Virus record (IMG/VR): IMGVR_UViG_3300029504_000072
Direction: 5' to 3' (one strand)
DNA length: 13,090 nt
DNA from: a virus
Taxonomy: Duplodnaviria > Heunggongvirae > Uroviricota > Caudoviricetes
Below are positions 90 to 13,090 of this stretch, in pieces. A program made the position numbers and the translations under genes. The first letter of the stretch is position 1; the number at the start of each line of letters is the position of its first letter. Below the pieces are notes generated by a model, which made no database searches, was not told the DNA's origin, and saw nothing but the letters and a program-made list of their open reading frames with translations.

Positions 90-1184
90 ATGCGTTCAAC
101 TGGTACGACAGATATTCGGGAAGCCCGAGTCATTCGTGACCGGATAATGTATGAGTTTTTCACCATCCGTGATCGACTGAAACCAAAGCCACAGGGAAAT
201 TGTGTTGATCGCGTATTGAAAGAACTACGTCAGGTTGACCAATACGTCACCCAGAATGTGGGGATCGACTTCGCCACGGCTCGCGTGTGTCCTTCTCTTG
301 TCCAACTACGGGATGAATTCATTGTCCAACACAGTGACAGGCGCAAGCTGTCTACTTTGAGCAAGTACATCAAGGCCGTAGAGGTGTTCACGGCACATTT
401 CAGGTGCAAGGATTTCCGCCTGCACGAGATCAACAGAACGATGGTGACTGACTGGCTCGACAACGCAAAACTTGAACGGGCAACACAGACACTGGCAAAT
501 TATTTGGGCTGCTTGTCCCAACTGGTGGCGCTGGCCCAGAACCGCTACCACGATGCGCCAAAAGAGAACGTCTTCACAGCCCATAAGCTGGATGTGCGAC
601 ATGATCACGAGAGTTACGAGCCATTCAGCGGTGATGAACTGGCGCAGGTTGTGGATTTGCTTGATCAGGAGATGAAGGAAGTCGCGTTGGTGGGAATGTA
701 TACCGGGATGCAACTTAATGAAATCTGTTCGCTACAGATCGACAATATCAAAACGGTAGAGGGGGTTTGGTGTTTCGAAGTGACGGAAGGCAAGACGCGC
801 AATGCGGCCCGCCTGGTTCCCATTCATAGCAAGTTACGGACTCTCGTTAAACATCTTATCCAGAACAATCACAGCGGCTTCCTGTTCTACCATGCCAGTA
901 TAACTGAACGAGCAGACGGCAAGCGCTCTACATGGCACACACAGCGATTCACACGGGCTAAACGGAAGGCGCTAGGAGAGAAGGGGACAGAAAGAAAGGT
1001 ATTTCACAGCCTGCGGGGAATGTTTATCAGCCAGCTTGATCACGGTGGTGTCCCAGAAGACAGGATCGCATTGATCGTAGGTCACGAGAGAGGGAAAACT
1101 GAATCATTCCGCACCTATAGCCAAGGTGCCAGTATGAAGGAGTTAGCAACCTATGTTAATTTGGCAACCTACAAGAAAATTTAG
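90..1184 (+). CDS. Phage-type tyrosine integrase (site-specific recombinase)
   Basis: 364-aa ORF; upstream in-frame stop at 60-62. C-terminal box II HSLRGMF (H-x-x-R), then VGHERG...FRTY (His and terminal Tyr nucleophile). Box I region reads TGMQLNE, with Gln where the catalytic Arg normally sits. No clear Shine-Dalgarno before the ATG. Confidence 0.8.
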   Translation: MRSTGTTDIREARVIRDRIMYEFFTIRDRLKPKPQGNCVDRVLKELRQVDQYVTQNVGIDFATARVCPSLVQLRDEFIVQHSDRRKLSTLSKYIKAVEVFTAHFRCKDFRLHEINRTMVTDWLDNAKLERATQTLANYLGCLSQLVALAQNRYHDAPKENVFTAHKLDVRHDHESYEPFSGDELAQVVDLLDQEMKEVALVGMYTGMQLNEICSLQIDNIKTVEGVWCFEVTEGKTRNAARLVPIHSKLRTLVKHLIQNNHSGFLFYHASITERADGKRSTWHTQRFTRAKRKALGEKGTERKVFHSLRGMFISQLDHGGVPEDRIALIVGHERGKTESFRTYSQGASMKELATYVNLATYKKI

Positions 1185-1253
1185 GTGACAAAAAGCAATA
1201 AATAATTACAATTACGTTCAAAAAACCATCCAGGGAAAGTGAGTTAAAAACAA

Positions 1254-1490
1254 GTGATTAAAAAAATTATCATCATCATATTGTTAATTGTAGCGGGTCT
1301 TTGGGGCTATGGGGCAAGTATTGGTTACTCTCAAAACGATAAGGGAGTATCTTTATTCCAAGTTGCTTACACATATAACTCCCTGAATTTTATAAGTCAG
1401 TATGGATATATGTTTTTCATACGACAAAACCATCAATTAGTCGAAAGAGCTAAAGATTTAAATCGTGATTTTGAGCATAATACAAATTAA
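1254..1490 (+). CDS. Hypothetical small membrane protein (78 aa, GTG start)
   Basis: N-terminal hydrophobic helix KKIIIIILLIVAGLWGY; AT-rich; in tandem with the next ORF. Non-ATG start and weak RBS lower confidence. Confidence 0.35.
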   Translation: MIKKIIIIILLIVAGLWGYGASIGYSQNDKGVSLFQVAYTYNSLNFISQYGYMFFIRQNHQLVERAKDLNRDFEHNTN

Positions 1491-1505
1491 CCACTGGAGC
1501 CTTTA

Positions 1506-1778
1506 ATGAAAAAAATTATTTTCGTATCATTAATTTCATTTTCAGCCATTGCTTCATATGCTGATACACCTTACGCAGATGAGAAAGAAATGTCAGAAGA
1601 TGTATCTCTTTTAGCCCAGTCATCTCTATTATATAAGAGTAATGGTGAGAAAAGAATGTATGATAATACAAAGATGCTATGTATTGGCATCCAAGGAAAG
1701 TACGATCTAACAAATAACAGGACTGAAAACATGATCCGATGGATGGGAAAAGTTCAAAGTATCTGCTCTGATTATTAA
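1506..1778 (+). CDS. Hypothetical small secreted protein (90 aa) with Sec-type signal peptide
   Basis: GGAG at 1496-1499, 6 nt before the ATG. N-terminus MKKIIFVSLISFSAIASYA followed by a polar mature part with two Cys. No family recognised. Confidence 0.55.
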   Translation: MKKIIFVSLISFSAIASYADTPYADEKEMSEDVSLLAQSSLLYKSNGEKRMYDNTKMLCIGIQGKYDLTNNRTENMIRWMGKVQSICSDY

Positions 1779-1779
1779 T

Positions 1780-1809
1780 AAAAAAACCGGGCGGTTTTAC
1801 CCGTCCGGT
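1780..1809 (-). terminator. Intrinsic terminator-like hairpin, canonical for minus-strand transcripts
   Basis: 9-bp stem ACCGGGCGG / CCGTCCGGT (one G-U pair) with loop TTTTAC at 1786-1809. The A-run at 1780-1786 becomes a U-tract after the hairpin on the minus strand; on the plus strand the hairpin alone follows the 1506-1778 stop. Confidence 0.45.
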
Positions 1810-1909
1810 CAGATAGCATCTTTCAGTTTTTGCTGCATTGCGTAATGGTGTATAGCGGGTTCGAGGCCGACGCTGGCGACCTTGCTCAGAAATGTTGAGC
1901 GATGCACAC

Positions 1910-1913
1910 CTAA
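1910..1913. repeat. IS5 target-site duplication, left copy (CTAA)
   Basis: CTAA directly abuts the left IS5 terminal inverted repeat and is repeated at 3109-3112; IS5 makes 4-bp duplications at YTAR-like targets. Confidence 0.9.
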
Positions 1914-3108
<1,195 letters not shown>

Positions 3109-3112
3109 CTAA
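3109..3112. repeat. IS5 target-site duplication, right copy (CTAA)
   Basis: CTAA directly after the right IS5 inverted repeat, matching 1910-1913. Confidence 0.9.
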
Positions 3113-3173
3113 CATTTTAAATGTTGGAATCGCAACGTAGTTATTATCATATAACAGCTTGTTTCCTGATTTA

Positions 3174-3201
3174 GCCAGCCTCCCCAAAGGCTGGTTTTTT
3201 T
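3174..3201 (+). terminator. Rho-independent terminator (plus-strand orientation)
   Basis: Stem CCAGCC (3175-3180) / GGCTGG (3189-3194), 8-nt loop, then a T-run at 3195-3201. Lies between IS5 and the blc stop. Confidence 0.55.
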
Positions 3202-3229
3202 CTAATAAGTATCATTTCGGGTGGGGATT

Positions 3230-3754
3230 TTATTGTTTAACCCATAATAGTTCATTGACATTGAATCCCAACTTTTGAGCGGTACGCACATAGTCTGCTT
3301 TTACATTATCTGGAATAGTTTGGGTCCTTGCCAGAATCCATAGGTATTCTCTGTTCGGACCACTGACAAGAGCATACTTATACTCATCATCCAGCTTGAT
3401 TACATTATAGCCACCATAGAAGGGGCCAAAAAACGAAACTTTCAACGCTGCAGTTTTAGTATCTCCAGTAAAGTATGCTTTACCTTCGCTCTCGCTCCAT
3501 TTGTTTTTCGTTGGATCGTATCCACGGTTAAGTACGCGAATCCCTCCGTCGTTCCGTTTTTCATAAGTAGCGCTGACTTGTTCCAGACCACGTTCGAACC
3601 AGTTCTCGAGGCGAGCTATTTCATACCATTTTCCGAGGTAGCGGTTGGCGTCAAAATTTGTAATCGGCTGCACACCTTTAGGTGGTGTCGGGGCCTTACA
3701 TGCTATAAGAGTGAAAGAGAGTGCAATGCCAGTCAACACAGGCCATAACTTCAT
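3230..3754 (-). CDS. blc: Outer-membrane lipoprotein, bacterial lipocalin Blc family (divergent paralog)
   Basis: 174-aa ORF with lipoprotein signal and lipobox (MKLWPVLTGIALSFTLIAC); lipocalin motifs NFDANRYLGKWYEIARL and KVSFFGPFYGGYNVI...YLWILAR; roughly half of positions match E. coli Blc as I recall it. Confidence 0.85.
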   Translation of the reverse strand: MKLWPVLTGIALSFTLIACKAPTPPKGVQPITNFDANRYLGKWYEIARLENWFERGLEQVSATYEKRNDGGIRVLNRGYDPTKNKWSESEGKAYFTGDTKTAALKVSFFGPFYGGYNVIKLDDEYKYALVSGPNREYLWILARTQTIPDNVKADYVRTAQKLGFNVNELLWVKQ

Positions 3755-3946
3755 AATAAATCCTGTACTTTTGATAGTTGAGAGTAAGTATGAAAGATAG
3801 ATGAGTACGACCGATCACTTAAAGAACTTTCCTACTATATTAGGAATAGTCAATAACAGAAAAATTGTCAGTGATGAAGCCAGAAAGGCAATTTAGTCCG
3901 TGCACTACAAAGTTTATGTGTTAATGAATTAGTCAAGGGGGAGGAA

Positions 3947-4906
3947 ATGATAAAAAAACCTGTGATTGGGATCAGCGGTTGTTTGGGCGGTTCTGCTGTT
4001 CGTTTTGATGGTGGTCACAAAAGAGATGACTTTTTAATGGACAAATTAGTGGAATGGGTAACATTCAGACCAGTATGTCCGGAAATGGCTATAGGGCTGC
4101 CAGTTCCGCGTCCTGCTCTACGACTTGTGCGCTCGAAGCAAGGAAATATACGGATGTGTTTCAGCCACGACCAGAATGAGGATGTGACAGAGAGAATGAC
4201 AGAGTTTAGTCGTTCTTATATGGACAAATTAAAGGATGTATCGGGGTTTGTGGTTTGTGCTAAATCTCCCAGCTGTGGCATGGAGCGCGTGCGTGTCTAT
4301 GATGAAAATGGTAATCGAGGTCGTAAAGATGGAGTGGGACTATTTACGAGCACTTTGATGGAAAAGTTTTCCTGGCTACCGGTTGAAGAGGATGGGCGAT
4401 TACATGATCCAGTGCTTCGTGAGAATTTTATTGAAAGAGTTTTTGCTTTGCATGAGCTCAATCATCTTTACAAGGAGAAATTATCAAGAAGAGAGTTATT
4501 AGCTTTTCATAGTCGTTATAAGCTTCAGTTGTTGGCGCATAGCCAGGCAGGCTATAAAGATATGGGACCATTTGTGGCTGCAATACACGAGTGGGCGGAC
4601 CTTGAATCATACTTTGAGGTGTATCGTGATAATCTGATGGCGATTCTCAGAAAACCAGCATCACGTAAAAATCACACGAATGTGCTGATGCATATACAGG
4701 GGTATTTTAGTAATTACTTAAGTACACGCCAGCGTAAAGAGTTGAGCGAGGTTATACTTAACTATCGCTTTGGCACATTGCCTCTTCTTGCGCCGTTGAC
4801 TCTGCTGAAGCATTATCTGGGTGAGTATCCTAATGATTACTTGCTTACACAGAATTACTTCGATCCCTATCCGGAAGAACTGGCTCTAAGACTGATGGTG
4901 AATTAA
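3947..4906 (+). CDS. DUF523/DUF1722 two-domain protein (TudS-like Fe-S domain fused to YbgA-like domain)
   Basis: 319-aa ORF; strong RBS GGGGGAGGAA before the ATG. N-terminal motifs GISGCLGG...VRFDGGHK, VCPE and SPSCG match the Cys-containing DUF523 signature; the C-terminal half resembles YbgA-type DUF1722. Confidence 0.75.
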   Translation: MIKKPVIGISGCLGGSAVRFDGGHKRDDFLMDKLVEWVTFRPVCPEMAIGLPVPRPALRLVRSKQGNIRMCFSHDQNEDVTERMTEFSRSYMDKLKDVSGFVVCAKSPSCGMERVRVYDENGNRGRKDGVGLFTSTLMEKFSWLPVEEDGRLHDPVLRENFIERVFALHELNHLYKEKLSRRELLAFHSRYKLQLLAHSQAGYKDMGPFVAAIHEWADLESYFEVYRDNLMAILRKPASRKNHTNVLMHIQGYFSNYLSTRQRKELSEVILNYRFGTLPLLAPLTLLKHYLGEYPNDYLLTQNYFDPYPEELALRLMVN

Positions 4907-5312
4907 CTGTATGCGATATCATCTGAAAGTGATGAGTTCCTGTATGCAGGATATTTACAATCGTAAAAACTACGCTATGATGCTCATAGTGTCAGTTTTT
5001 ATAAAAATCCTGTTCACGCTAAAGAAAACATTGAGATGCAATTTAATGTTGGTAAACATACCAGCCCCAAACGATTTTATTCAATCTGTTTTTATATGAA
5101 GATATTTCAAGTGAATATTAAGAGTATATAATATTATTATTGCACGCAGCTATTATAATATAACAGATTAGTTTAATGATTTGTTTTTTGTGAGTTAAAC
5201 ACATGGTTTTATAGTTGTGATGCAATGAGATTTTCCTTATTGTTGAACTGGCGAATATTGATTTTCCACCTATACTTACCTGGTGTAACCCCAATGATAT
5301 CAGGTGGATAAT

Positions 5313-6026
5313 ATGCCATACATATGTTCTATCATTTTGGTGTTGAACTCGTTTGGTGTCCGAATTGGTAAAGAAGATATTTTGTTTAAAAAAGGAAATG
5401 CTGTCCTCATTGAATACAATTTAAAAGATCTTTTTTCGTCAAATACAGATCATCTAATGATCGTAGATGTTGAGGAGAAAACAGTTAATGATTTCTTTAA
5501 AAACTACACACTCTCACCTTTTTCTGTAAGAAGGTTTTATCCGTCATACTTGATAGTAGAATGTGAAGATTTTTCATTGTTAAGGAACTTGGTTGCATGC
5601 TTGAATTGTGATAGCAAAACCGTGGATGTAGTTAGAAATCAAATATCACTTGCATGTCTTGCTGTCTTATCTTCAGAGAAAATAGTGCAAAGTTTTTTGT
5701 TCGGAAGTCTTAATAGCTTAGGTTGTAAAGTTAAGGCTATTATTCACTCGGATATCTCAGCGTCATGGAGACTTTGTGATATATCTTCAAGATTATATAT
5801 GAGCGAGAGTTTGTTAAAAAGAAAATTAAAAGACGAAGGATTATCGTTTAGTAAATTAATTCTTGAAGAACGAATGATGATGGCGCAAAGATTATTGATC
5901 TACAGTAACCATACTGTCGGCAAGGTGGCGGGAATATGCGGGTATGACAATGCATCATATTTTGTAAGTGTTTTTAGAGGATATTTTGGTGTGCCTCCGC
6001 ACCAATATTTATCAAGATTTTCTTAG
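5313..6026 (+). CDS. AraC/XylS-family transcriptional regulator, AppY-like
   Basis: C-terminal AraC HTH (LLKRKLKDEGLSFSKLILEERMMMAQRLL...KVAGICGYDNASYFVSVFRGYFGVPPHQY); N-terminus MPYICSIILVL resembles AppY-type regulators. I place the start at ATG 5313 (RBS AGGTGG at 5302-5307) rather than the track's GTG 5304. AT-rich gene and upstream region. Confidence 0.8.
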   Translation: MPYICSIILVLNSFGVRIGKEDILFKKGNAVLIEYNLKDLFSSNTDHLMIVDVEEKTVNDFFKNYTLSPFSVRRFYPSYLIVECEDFSLLRNLVACLNCDSKTVDVVRNQISLACLAVLSSEKIVQSFLFGSLNSLGCKVKAIIHSDISASWRLCDISSRLYMSESLLKRKLKDEGLSFSKLILEERMMMAQRLLIYSNHTVGKVAGICGYDNASYFVSVFRGYFGVPPHQYLSRFS

Positions 6027-7103: not shown

Positions 7104-8131
<1,028 letters not shown>

Positions 8132-9848: not shown

Positions 9849-10055
9849 ATGCATAAAGATCAATACACTGATGCCCCCTCCCAGGAGCAGGTTCGTGTAA
9901 AAACTATGCTTAATAGCACCATTTCGATGGGTTACCCGGATGTTGTAATTGCATGTATAGAACATCAAGTGTCTCTGGAAGCATTCAGGGCAATTGAGGC
10001 CGCGTTAGTAAAGCACGATAAGAATACGAAGGATTATTCCCTGGTGGTTGACTGA
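9849..10055 (+). CDS. Hypothetical 68-aa protein
   Basis: GGAG at 9838-9841, 7 nt before the ATG; product [40 protein letters not shown]...; no family recognised. Confidence 0.45.
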
Positions 10056-10399
10056 TCACCATAACTGCTAACCATTCTGACCATTTCACAAGTGACAGAG
10101 TCAATATCGTATTCTGTCACTGTCAGGCTAATACAGCAATGCAATTCAACTACAGCAATGCCTCGTATTTAGGTGAATTTACAATATCGTCCAGTTCGGA
10201 TGCCGGCTGCATTTCTGAAGATAAGGCATTTCGGTTCTCGTATTTTCCCCTCATGCTCGTCAGTCCTGCGCGTAGTAAGAGACAGGACACTCACACTAAT
10301 TTGTGTGGGCATGCTGTGATGTCCTTCTGAATTATCCCCATGCCATTATGTAAAGCTCTGTTACAGATGCTCGTCACGGTTGTCAGGCTGTCGGGTCCT

Positions 10400-10560
10400 C
10401 CCAGTGGGGGGCCCTGCCACGGGGCGGGAGCGTCGCGGAAAAAGGCTAGTTTTTGAAATTTTATTCGTCATCACCACTACTGTAATTGATTGGTATTACA
10501 GTGGTTTTATTTTTATGGTGTCGATTCTGATTGTTTTTTGTTCATCGCTAACACCGTTTG
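10400..10560 (+). other. Lambda-like cohesive-end site (cos), predicted cosN overhang GGGCGGGAGCGT at 10422-10433
   Basis: GC-rich CACGGGGCGGGAGCGTCGCGG in an AT-rich context matches lambda ACGGGGCGGCGACCTCGCGGG at 16 of 21 positions; downstream TTGAAATTTTATTCGTCAT echoes lambda cosB; 8-bp inverted repeat ACTGTAAT/ATTACAGT at 10479-10502; sits directly upstream of the terminase small-subunit gene as in lambda. Confidence 0.6.
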
Positions 10561-10607
10561 CCTAAAGTTGTTCGCAAGATGCATGTTTAAAACATTCTGG
10601 AGCGGGT

Positions 10608-11102
10608 ATGGATCGAGAGTTAAAAAATCTGACGCTGAATATCAGTCAACTGGCGGCATTGTCAGGTGTACATCGCCAGACTGCTGCGGCAAGGCTGCAA
10701 AATCTACCCGTTGCAGGGGGGCATGAAAGCAACCTCAAGCTTTATCGGGTGGTTGATATTGTATCGGCATTTCTGGCATTACCACCGCCGGTTGCAGAAG
10801 GCGAAATGGACGCGCATGAGCGCAAAGCCTGGTATCAGTCTGAACGTGAGCGTCTTAAGTTCGAACAGGAAACGGCACAACTCATTCCGGCCAGTGATGT
10901 CAGACGGGAGTTTGCCATCTGGGCAAAAGCGGTCGTGCAGGTGCTGGAGACATTACCGGATATTCTTGAACGTGACTGCGGTCTGCAGCCTGCCGCTGTG
11001 AGCCGTGTTCAGTCCATTATTGATGATCTGCGCGATCAGATAGCCCTGCGGGTGACTGAAGCAGGTGCGGATGATGAGGAGGAATTACAGCAGGAGGAGT
11101 AA
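10608..11102 (+). CDS. Terminase small subunit (lambda Nu1 / NohA-like)
   Basis: 164-aa ORF with N-terminal HTH (LTLNISQLAALSGVHRQTAAARL) and acidic C-terminus; RBS GGAGCGGG; immediately after cos and before the large subunit; stop overlaps the next start (TAATG). Confidence 0.85.
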   Translation: MDRELKNLTLNISQLAALSGVHRQTAAARLQNLPVAGGHESNLKLYRVVDIVSAFLALPPPVAEGEMDAHERKAWYQSERERLKFEQETAQLIPASDVRREFAIWAKAVVQVLETLPDILERDCGLQPAAVSRVQSIIDDLRDQIALRVTEAGADDEEELQQEE

Positions 11103-13090
11103 TGCTGAATCAGGAAACCGCAAAGGCAGCACGAACCGATTCAGGTTATATCCTTCGCGCACCGAGACGAATGCGGGTTGCTGATGCCGTTGCTCAGTAT
11201 ATGCGGGTGCCCATGGGGGCAGGGAACTCAGTCCCGTGGGATCCGCTGGTGGCACCGTATGTTATTGAGCCTATGAACTGCCTGGCCTCGCGTGAATACG
11301 ACGCAGTGATATTTGTTGGCCCGGCACGAACCGGCAAGACTATCGGCCTGATTGACGGCTGGGTGATTTACAACGTGATTTGCGATCCTGCGGATATGCT
11401 GATCATTCAGATGACAGAGGAAAAAGCCCGCGAACACTCCAAAAAACGACTCGCCAGAACGTTTCGCGTCAGCCCGGAAGTGGTCAGTCGCCTGAGTCCG
11501 AACAAAAATGACAACAACGTTTATGACAGAACATTCCTTGCTGGCAACTACCTGAAAATCGGCTGGCCGTCAGTCAATATCATGTCCTCATCAGATTATA
11601 AATGCGTCGCGCTGACGGATTATGACCGTTTTCCGGAAGATATTGATGGCGAGGGGGATGCCTTCTCTCTTGCCTCAAAACGTACCACCACATTTATGTC
11701 CAGCGGTATGACGCTGGTGGAGAGTTCCCCCGGCAGGGATGTGAAGGATGTGAAATGGCGACGGACTTCACCGCATGAGGCTCCACCAACCACGGGGATC
11801 CTGTCGCTCTATAACCGTGGTGATCGCCGTCGCTGGTACTGGCCATGTCCACACTGTGGTGAGTATTTTCAGCCCTGCGGCGATGTGGTTGCTGGTTTCC
11901 GTGATATTGCCGATCCCGTGCTGGCAAGTGAGGCGGCTTATATTCAGTGTCCTTTCTGTTCAGGACGGATTATGCCTGAACAAAAACGTGAGCTGAACGG
12001 ACGTGGGGTCTGGTTGCGGGATGGTGAATCCATCAATGCGGATGGCAGTCGTTATGGTGATCCCAGGCGTTCACGTATTGCGTCATTCTGGATGGAGGGT
12101 CCGGCAGCTGCTTACCAGACACTCTCGCAACTCGTTTACAAACTGCTTACTGCAGAACAGGAATACGAGACAACCGGAAGTGAAGAAACACTCAAGACGG
12201 TTATCAATACCGACTGGGGATTACCTTATCTTCCCCGCGCCAGCATGGAGCAACGAAAAAGTGAACTGCTTGAGCAGCGGGCAGAGCCAGTTCCTTCCCG
12301 CAGTGTGCCAGATGGCGTTAATTTTCTTGTGGCGACAGTGGATGTGCAGGCGGGACGTCATCGCCGTTTTGTGGTTCAGGTAACGGGCTATGGCAGCCGT
12401 GGCGAACGCTGGATTATTGATCGTTACAACATCACGCAGTCATTGCGCGGTGACAGCGACGGGGAGAGCCAGCGAATTGATCCGGCCAGCTATCCGGAAG
12501 ACTGGGATGTCCTGCTGACGGATGTTTTTCATAAAAGCTGGCCGCTGGCCTCCGATCCTTCTCAACAAATGCGACTGATGGCAATGGCGGTGGACTCCGG
12601 CGGTGAAGACGGGGTCACTGATAATGCCTATAAATTCTGGCGTCGTTGCCGTCGTGATGGCCTTGGTAAACGTATTTACCTGTTTAAGGGCGACAGCATC
12701 CGGCGCGCAAAACTGATCACCCGTACATTCCCTGATAACACCGGACGAACGGGCCGACGGGCGCAGGCCGCAGGTGATGTGCCGCTCTGGCTTCTTCAGA
12801 CGGATGCACTGAAAGACCGGGTGAATAACGCGTTATGGCGTGACTCGCCAGGTCCCGGCTATGTGCATTTCCCTGACTGGCTGGGGAGCTGGTTTTACGA
12901 CGAACTGACGTATGAAGAGCGGAGCAGTGACGGGAAATGGAGTAAGCCGGGTCGCGGTGCCAACGAAGCTTTTGACCTGATGGTGTATGCCGAGGCTCTG
13001 GTCATTCTGCATGGATACGAAAAGATCCGCTGGCCGGATGCACCGGAGTGGGCGAGCCGGGAAACCTGGCTGGAGTGTGTCCCGGACAGC
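11102..13090 (+). CDS. Terminase large subunit (lambda gpA family), 3'-partial: runs off the window end
   Basis: Hand translation of frame 2 from ATG 11102 gives 663 codons with no stop to position 13090. Walker A VGPARTGKT; zinc-finger-like WPCPHCGEYF...CPFCSG comparable to lambda gpA ACPHCGEE; acidic nuclease-like motifs downstream. Not in the ORF track because it has no in-window stop. Confidence 0.9.
   Translation, partial: MLNQETAKAARTDSGYILRAPRRMRVADAVAQYMRVPMGAGNSVPWDPLVAPYVIEPMNCLASREYDAVIFVGPARTGKTIGLIDGWVIYNVICDPADMLIIQMTEEKAREHSKKRLARTFRVSPEVVSRLSPNKNDNNVYDRTFLAGNYLKIGWPSVNIMSSSDYKCVALTDYDRFPEDIDGEGDAFSLASKRTTTFMSSGMTLVESSPGRDVKDVKWRRTSPHEAPPTTGILSLYNRGDRRRWYWPCPHCGEYFQPCGDVVAGFRDIADPVLASEAAYIQCPFCSGRIMPEQKRELNGRGVWLRDGESINADGSRYGDPRRSRIASFWMEGPAAAYQTLSQLVYKLLTAEQEYETTGSEETLKTVINTDWGLPYLPRASMEQRKSELLEQRAEPVPSRSVPDGVNFLVATVDVQAGRHRRFVVQVTGYGSRGERWIIDRYNITQSLRGDSDGESQRIDPASYPEDWDVLLTDVFHKSWPLASDPSQQMRLMAMAVDSGGEDGVTDNAYKFWRRCRRDGLGKRIYLFKGDSIRRAKLITRTFPDNTGRTGRRAQAAGDVPLWLLQTDALKDRVNNALWRDSPGPGYVHFPDWLGSWFYDELTYEERSSDGKWSKPGRGANEAFDLMVYAEALVILHGYEKIRWPDAPEWASRETWLECVPDS

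Follow-up and report, generated by a model that had tools for sequence, protein, structure and literature searches.

A probable lambda-type cohesive-end site upstream of the terminase genes in a prophage segment related to phages mEp460, cdtI and Tritos

Gene content and layout of the locus

The window, that is, the whole stretch of 13,090 bp that was analyzed, is IMG/VR virus record IMGVR_UViG_3300029504_000072. Its gene order is integrase (90-1184), IS5 transposase (1982-2962), cargo genes, lysis genes, a ybcW-like ORF, the candidate cos region, terS and terL. The integrase is of the tyrosine type and directly precedes the IS5-family transposase. The cargo, located within 90-6026, includes a lipocalin (Blc-like, minus strand), a YbgA-family protein (2-thiouracil desulfurase + DUF1722) and an AraC-type regulator, and the lysis cassette contains a lysozyme gene at 7104-7637. 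No immunity or replication region is present in the window.

The features of the packaging region are listed below; numbers with a plus sign are counted from the predicted top-strand nick, and slashes within sequences mark predicted nicks.

10393-10399, plus strand: cosQ-like heptamer GGGTCCT (packaging-termination element), 22 nt left of the predicted top-strand nick
10420-10435, no strand assigned: predicted cosN, 16 bp, CG/GGGCGGGAGCGT/CG, with predicted nicks at 10421/10422 (top) and 10433/10434 (bottom)
10434-10454, plus strand: cosN-adjoining segment CGCGGAAAAAGGCTAGTTTTT, with the same letters in cdtI and Tritos and near-invariant among relatives
10455-10477 (+34 to +56), plus strand: candidate R3-like small-terminase binding segment GAAATTTTATTCGTCATCACCAC
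10476-10505, plus strand: inverted repeat ACTACTGTAAT / ATTACAGTGGT, perfect core of 8 bp, 8-nt spacer
10483-10495, minus strand: IHF-like site TAATTGATTGGTA, differing from WATCAANNNNTTR at one position, candidate counterpart of lambda I1
10506-10607, plus strand: rest of the AT-rich cosB-like segment, 35% G+C, reaching the terS ribosome-binding site
10608-11102, plus strand: small terminase subunit gene terS, 164 aa, Pfam DUF1441 (E 2.7e-41), PHROG 141 (E 7e-74)
11102-13090, plus strand: large terminase subunit gene terL, open for 663 codons and running off the window end

The sequence-only reading of this DNA had placed a cos site directly upstream of the small terminase gene, and the annotation agrees, with terS at 10608 followed by a gpA-type terL. 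The start of terS lies at +187, 186 bp after the predicted nick; the corresponding position in lambda is +191 (PMC9026076). TerL contains the domains GpA_ATPase (3e-71) and GpA_nuclease (9.5e-86) and is 87% identical to TerL of cdtI. For TerS, BLASTP detected no similarity to lambda Nu1, the Pfam search returned DUF1441 and not Phage_Nu1, and a sequence search of the PDB gave nothing meaningful. Over its full length the protein cross-matches PHROG 57, the family of Nu1, at 8e-10, and Nu1 in turn matches PHROG 141 at 5.6e-8; these reciprocal matches suggest that TerS is a distant relative of Nu1, at the profile level only. TerS is 42% identical to that of cdtI, mostly in the C-terminal half, which is presumably the TerL-binding part, and 56% identical to that of VT1-Sakai, the N-terminal HTH included.

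Relatives of the region were collected from IMG/VR. From 594 related stretches found, 80 loci were kept, all encoding a TerS 100% identical to that of the window; together with the window they form a set of 81 sequences with 71 distinct upstream haplotypes.

The cosQ-cosN core and the predicted DNA ends

Around the predicted left end of the virion DNA the window reads GTCGGGTCCTCCCAGTGGGGGGCCCTGCCACG/GGGCGGGAGCGTCGCGGAAAAAGGCTAGTTTTTGAAATTTTATTCGTCATCACC, the slash standing for the junction 10421/10422, and the 12-mer GGGCGGGAGCGT can be read directly at 10422-10433. A GC-rich island matching lambda cosN at 16 of 21 positions and followed by a cosB-like AT-rich segment had been noted earlier, and these statements hold. 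The G+C content is 75% in 10390-10445, 44.5% in the whole window, and 35% in 10446-10607, the AT-rich stretch that extends for about 170 bp after cosN and ends at terS. The 21-mer at 10419-10439, ACGGGGCGGGAGCGTCGCGGA, is identical to lambda ACGGGGCGGCGACCTCGCGGG at 16 of 21 positions. When both strands were scanned, a match of at least 16/21 was found at this site only, and the same level was reached anywhere in 1.3% of random windows (n = 300, first-order Markov).

The region was aligned, anchored at the nick, with the corresponding regions of lambda, 21, phi80, N15, mEp213, VT1-Sakai, cdtI and Tritos. In the common frame ACG/GGGCGG is constant; the second half of the overhang varies and is followed by CGCGG. 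The window retains both the left half, ACG/GGGCGG, and the right flank, CGCGG. Alignment to lambda, 21 and N15 had been suggested as a check on the sequence-only reading; ACG/GGGCGG, CGCGG and the cosQ heptamer were all in register in these phages, and also in phi80 and mEp213. The cohesive end is GGGCGGCGACCT in lambda, 21 and phi80, GGGCGGCGTCCG in N15, GGGCGGCGCGCT in mEp213, and GGGCGGGAGCGT in the window, cdtI, Tritos and the mEp460 group. As in lambda, a CG dinucleotide precedes each predicted nick. By direct reading, two-fold symmetry in the cosN of the window extends to 8 of 16 bp; the value for lambda cosN is 10 of 16 bp (PMC9026076).

The cosQ heptamer at 10393-10399 was missed by the earlier reading. 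GGGTCCT lies 23 nt before the genome end in lambda and phage 21, is annotated as cosQ in OL657228 (phage 21), and is present in the nick-anchored alignment in cdtI, Tritos, mEp213, VT1-Sakai, N15 and phi80 as well. Its distance from cosN is constant to within 1 nt (22-23 nt) across the aligned phages. Among the 71 distinct relatives conservation sets in sharply at cosQ, and the segment from cosQ to +40 is near-invariant, whereas the sequence to the left is mosaic, which points to a recombination boundary at cosQ.

Just left of cosQ, an 8-nt unit, GGCTGTCA (window 10380-10392; Tritos stretch 1880-1905), is present in one to three tandem copies among relatives. The 9-mer TGTCAGGCT, previously noted as occurring at both 10121 and 10381, is indeed found twice, and its copy at 10381 is part of this unit. 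As 518 different 9-mers recur in the window, the recurrence is at chance level, and the 9-mer was rejected as a functional repeat.

With lambda the window shares GGGTCCT, the 22-23 nt spacer, ACG/GGGCGG......CGCGG, a cosB that is AT-rich over about 175 bp and holds a candidate IHF-type site, and a gpA-type TerL. It differs in the right half of the overhang (GAGCGT, compared with CGACCT in lambda; 8 of the 12 overhang bases are identical), in a cosB without sequence similarity to that of lambda, and in a TerS related at the profile level only. Phages cdtI (AB285204) and Tritos (OV696610) are identical to the window in the cosQ spacer, the 12-mer GGGCGGGAGCGT and the next 21 nt, but their cosB differs from +34 on and their TerS is of another type. 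The mEp460 group (JQ182728, LR597641, phi458, Ayreon) has the same cosB and TerS as the window, at 93-99% DNA identity; most mEp460-type sites are one IHF-core base apart from that of the window, which appears to lie in a defective prophage. The cos regions of mEp213/LLS and of Stx phages of the VT1-Sakai type have the same framework and a similar left flank, GGGTCCTCC..GGTGG..CCTGCCACG; mEp213 also has GGCTAGTTTTT at +23 to +33 in common with the window, and both mEp213 and VT1-Sakai carry a GTCATCA motif at about +45 like the window. In these phages, however, the right overhang halves differ, and cosB differs past about +56.

Megablast of positions 10000-11100 against phage records returned the mEp460 group, namely mEp460, mEp460_ev081, phi458, Ayreon and vB_EcoS-569R4. 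Two independent deposits, cdtI and Tritos, have in common that the record starts with GGGCGGGAGCGTCGCGGAAAAAGGCTAGTTTTT and finishes with CTGCCACG (...CCACG). The linear record of Tritos has GGGCGGGAGCGTCGCGGAAAAAGGCTAGTTTTTG as its first letters and GGGTCCTCCCGGTGGGGGCCCCTGCCACG as its last; that of cdtI opens with GGGCGGGAGCGTCGCGGAAAAAGGCTAGTTTTT and closes with GGGTCCTTCCGGTGGGGTGGCCTGCCACG. As both records start and stop at 10421/10422, both depositors put the genome ends at the junction that the sequence-only reading had predicted, in agreement with its 12-nt cohesive end and its left end at 10422. These record ends could be placements by homology to lambda. The Tritos paper contains no description of how the genome ends were set, and in the Ayreon announcement cos was placed solely by inference from terminase phylogeny. 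The sole match to GGGCGGGAGCGT in a full-text literature search was an unrelated paper on a mammalian promoter. The cosN variant and its location are thus already implicit in public records (cdtI 2007, Tritos 2022), and the class of site is textbook knowledge.

The virion-derived record of mEp460_4F5 (LR595868, stretch 1-30) begins 5 nt to the left of the predicted nick, and at the right edge of cosN 3 nt are missing from it (GGGCGGGAGCGCGG compared with GGGCGGGAGCGTCGCGG); both the offset and the gap are probably end-of-contig artefacts. In mEp460_ev081 (LR597641, stretch 1935-2150), a cosB segment of about 113 bp, from GGCTAGTTTTTG to GATTGTTTTTTG, is tandemly duplicated, which could be a real duplication of cosB or an assembly artefact at the genome ends.

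Among the 81 sequences the 12-mer GGGCGGGAGCGT is present in 62, and GGGCGGGAGCGG, with G at base 12, in 12. Base 12 of the predicted cohesive end (10433) is therefore polymorphic, and rarer variants are ...GCAT, ...GCAG and GGGCGGCAGCGG. Co-infection or recombination between T-type and G-type phages would form a mismatched cos.

From homology and the coordinates of the phage record ends, nicks are predicted at 10421/10422 and 10433/10434, which would produce 12-nt 5' overhangs, 5'-GGGCGGGAGCGT on the left and 5'-ACGCTCCCGCCC on the right. It is highly improbable that the likeness to cosN misleads on the ends, with cuts at other positions, an overhang of other length, or headful packaging: TerL has both GpA domains, CG is conserved before both predicted nicks as in lambda, two phage records end exactly at the predicted junction, and the spacing of cosQ and cosN is conserved within 1 nt. 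Such a deviation would be in line with the assignment of TerS to DUF1441 in place of Phage_Nu1, with the shifted start of mEp460_4F5 and its 3-nt deletion at the right nick, and with the T/G variation at base 12 of the overhang. The segment 10393-10607 is very probably a cohesive-end site (cosQ-cosN-cosB) of a lambda-type packaging module belonging to the mEp460/cdtI/Tritos group of E. coli lambdoid phages.

The presumably TerS-specific part of cosB and its candidate IHF-type site

Identity with cdtI and Tritos extends from cosQ through +33 and not beyond. The segment 10434-10454 is thus independent of the type of small terminase, being identical in these phages although their TerS is only 42% identical to that of the window. 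The end of the similarity at +33 suggests that the part from cosQ to +33 goes with the shared, gpA-type TerL, and that the TerS-specific part, which would co-vary with the DNA-binding end of TerS, begins at about +34. The segment from +34 to +56 is conserved among loci with the same TerS. VT1-Sakai, with a similar N-terminal HTH in TerS, has ATTTTAT-CGTCATCA in common with the window here; in cdtI and Tritos both this sequence and the TerS N-terminus are different. The position agrees with that of R3, which occupies bp 50-65 in lambda and bp 48-60 in N15 (PMC9026076). Its position and its co-variation with the N-terminus of TerS make 10455-10477 a candidate equivalent of R3.

An 8-bp inverted repeat had been reported within cosB by the earlier reading. 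The repeat is present, with arms ACTGTAAT (10479-10486) and ATTACAGT (10495-10502) that reach 11 nt if one mismatch is allowed (10476-10486 and 10495-10505), but an IHF site, one base off in the window copy, is a better reading of it than a cosB hairpin. Of the 81 sequences, 77 have a perfect IHF consensus, YAANNNNTTGATW, which is the reverse complement of WATCAANNNNTTR; in 76 it starts at +62 and bridges the spacer between the repeat arms. The arms, on the other hand, have accumulated many uncompensated substitutions in the relatives, with 7-11 of 11 positions paired. Uncompensated changes in the arms next to a consensus kept in 77 of 81 sequences suggest that what is conserved at this position is no hairpin but an IHF-type site, a candidate counterpart of lambda I1. 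I1 itself was located by the same scan at 79-91 in lambda and at 74-86 in phage 21; at the threshold of one mismatch or less, 1.3 hits per kb are expected by chance in the window. The allele of the window, G at 10492 (TTGGT in place of TTGAT), breaks the consensus and is found in 4 of the 81 sequences, the window and three others.

The repeat at 10476-10505, with the following T-run, might instead not be a packaging element but an intrinsic terminator placed before the head genes, past which only Q-modified polymerase would transcribe. A terminator scan does report 11 pairs followed by TTTATTTTTA, and the stretch folds as RNA with -14.8 kcal/mol (z = -3.1). However, one such site was found where 0.8 are expected from shuffled sequences, the stem has only three G-C pairs, and the arms have changed without compensation while the IHF consensus that spans the loop was kept in 77 of 81 sequences. 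With no compensatory pattern and a scan at chance level, an RNA hairpin or terminator is not favoured, and the terminator reading is considered improbable.

To the right of the IHF-type site, positions 10522-10607 are near-invariant among relatives. As possible R2- and R1-like copies, GGTGTCGAT (inverted, at 10517-10525) and TTCATCGC (at 10541-10548) are weak, speculative candidates, and TTTTATTCGTC at 10459 recurs as a 9/11 direct repeat, TTTTGTTCATC, at 10536; all R-site assignments rest on weak repeats with 7-9 matches of 11.

Across 79 in-register loci that encode an identical TerS, diversity per site amounts to 0.07-0.10 in 10462-10521 and to 0-0.03 in cosN, in 10522-10607 and in the whole terS gene. 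This patch of 60 bp takes in the inverted repeat and the IHF site together with the right flank of the latter. Its diversity is 5-10 times that of cosN, the remaining cosB and terS, and is also higher than the apparent synonymous diversity in the gene next to it. The patch may simply be the sole unconstrained stretch. A raised local mutation rate, or diversifying selection that acts on the initiation of packaging (e.g. escape from cos-hijacking satellites), is a distinctly improbable explanation, as is the related idea that cos-terS-terL is kept in defective Qin-site prophages to interfere with, or exploit, superinfecting phages of the same specificity.

Prophage context and proposed packaging function

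The best E. coli matches to the window lie at the Qin locus, between ynfA/rspA and ydfJ, and the window fits a cargo-laden, deleted prophage at that locus. The window is not matched over more than 80% of its length at a single place in any complete genome of the collection. In strain TST3 the Qin-site locus has an intact DUF1441 gene and terL, together with a portal gene that is truncated and fused to tail-fibre remnants, and several IS elements. Also in E. coli TST3 (stretch 21974-22671), an IS1 lies between the ybcW-like ORF and terS, at or near the cos region; the module is evidently being disrupted independently in different strains.

[quoted passage not shown] In these islands an rpp gene takes the place of terS-terL and a phage-type cosB is missing, whereas in the window a phage-type cosB is followed by a full terS-terL pair, which identifies the window as a prophage remnant and not a PICI. 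A PICI cos-rpp module was rejected, since terS (PHROG 141) and a gpA-type terL follow the site.

The steps of packaging can be carried over from lambda (PMC9026076) and would apply to the window by analogy. TerS (10608-11102) would bind cosB, the most likely position being about +34 to +56, and a bend that IHF induces at about +62 to +74 would assist the binding. Bound TerS would anchor the gpA-type TerL on cosN, and TerL would then nick the top strand at 10421/10422 and the bottom strand at 10433/10434, generating the 12-nt 5' overhangs upon strand separation. The left virion end would begin with 5'-GGGCGGGAGCGT and the right end with 5'-ACGCTCCCGCCC. Packaging would proceed rightwards through the terminase genes until, at the next cos, cosQ (GGGTCCT) and cosN would direct the terminating cut.

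The cos-terS-terL module of the window looks as if it sits in a decayed prophage at the Qin site. That an intact packaging site persists in an otherwise decayed prophage, as had been proposed from the sequence, is plausible, given the order integrase-IS5-cargo-lysis and the truncated portal in TST3, with the one-base change in the IHF core as a small reservation. In a decayed prophage the site is probably a retained relic that can be cleaved only when a cognate terminase is expressed, and as the homologous Qin-site prophages are defective, it may never be used in this genome.

A further step would be that the site derives from a cos but can no longer be cleaved or packaged here, the prophage being defective and its cosB having drifted (IHF core TTGAT to TTGGT). 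This is rather unlikely, though to be taken seriously. The integrase is followed by IS5, cargo and lysis genes, with the early region absent from the window; in TST3 the portal is truncated and fused to tail-fibre remnants among IS elements; and the IHF allele of the window is found in only 4 of 81 relatives. Yet plaque-forming phages have cosQ, cosN and positions +1 to +56 letter for letter as in the window, 80 viral contigs encode the same TerS (100% identity), and TerL is open across all 663 visible codons. Cleavage by a superinfecting phage that shares this specificity would still be possible. Moreover, loss of IHF or of I1 causes only a modest drop in yield in lambda, which likewise counts against a dead site.

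With a retained lambda-type cos as the preferred reading, the left virion end is assigned to 10422, and cosQ, cosN and cosB are assigned for a module that is common in E. coli. As a comparative point, the part from cosQ to +33 would pair with the gpA-type TerL, and the part from +34 onward would co-vary with the DNA-binding end of TerS. The coordinates help to set the genome starts of mEp460- and cdtI-type phages, and they draw attention to cos sites in the chromosome that could serve cognate phages in transduction. The 86-nt cos core was found in 2066 of 5426 complete E. coli genomes (about 38%).
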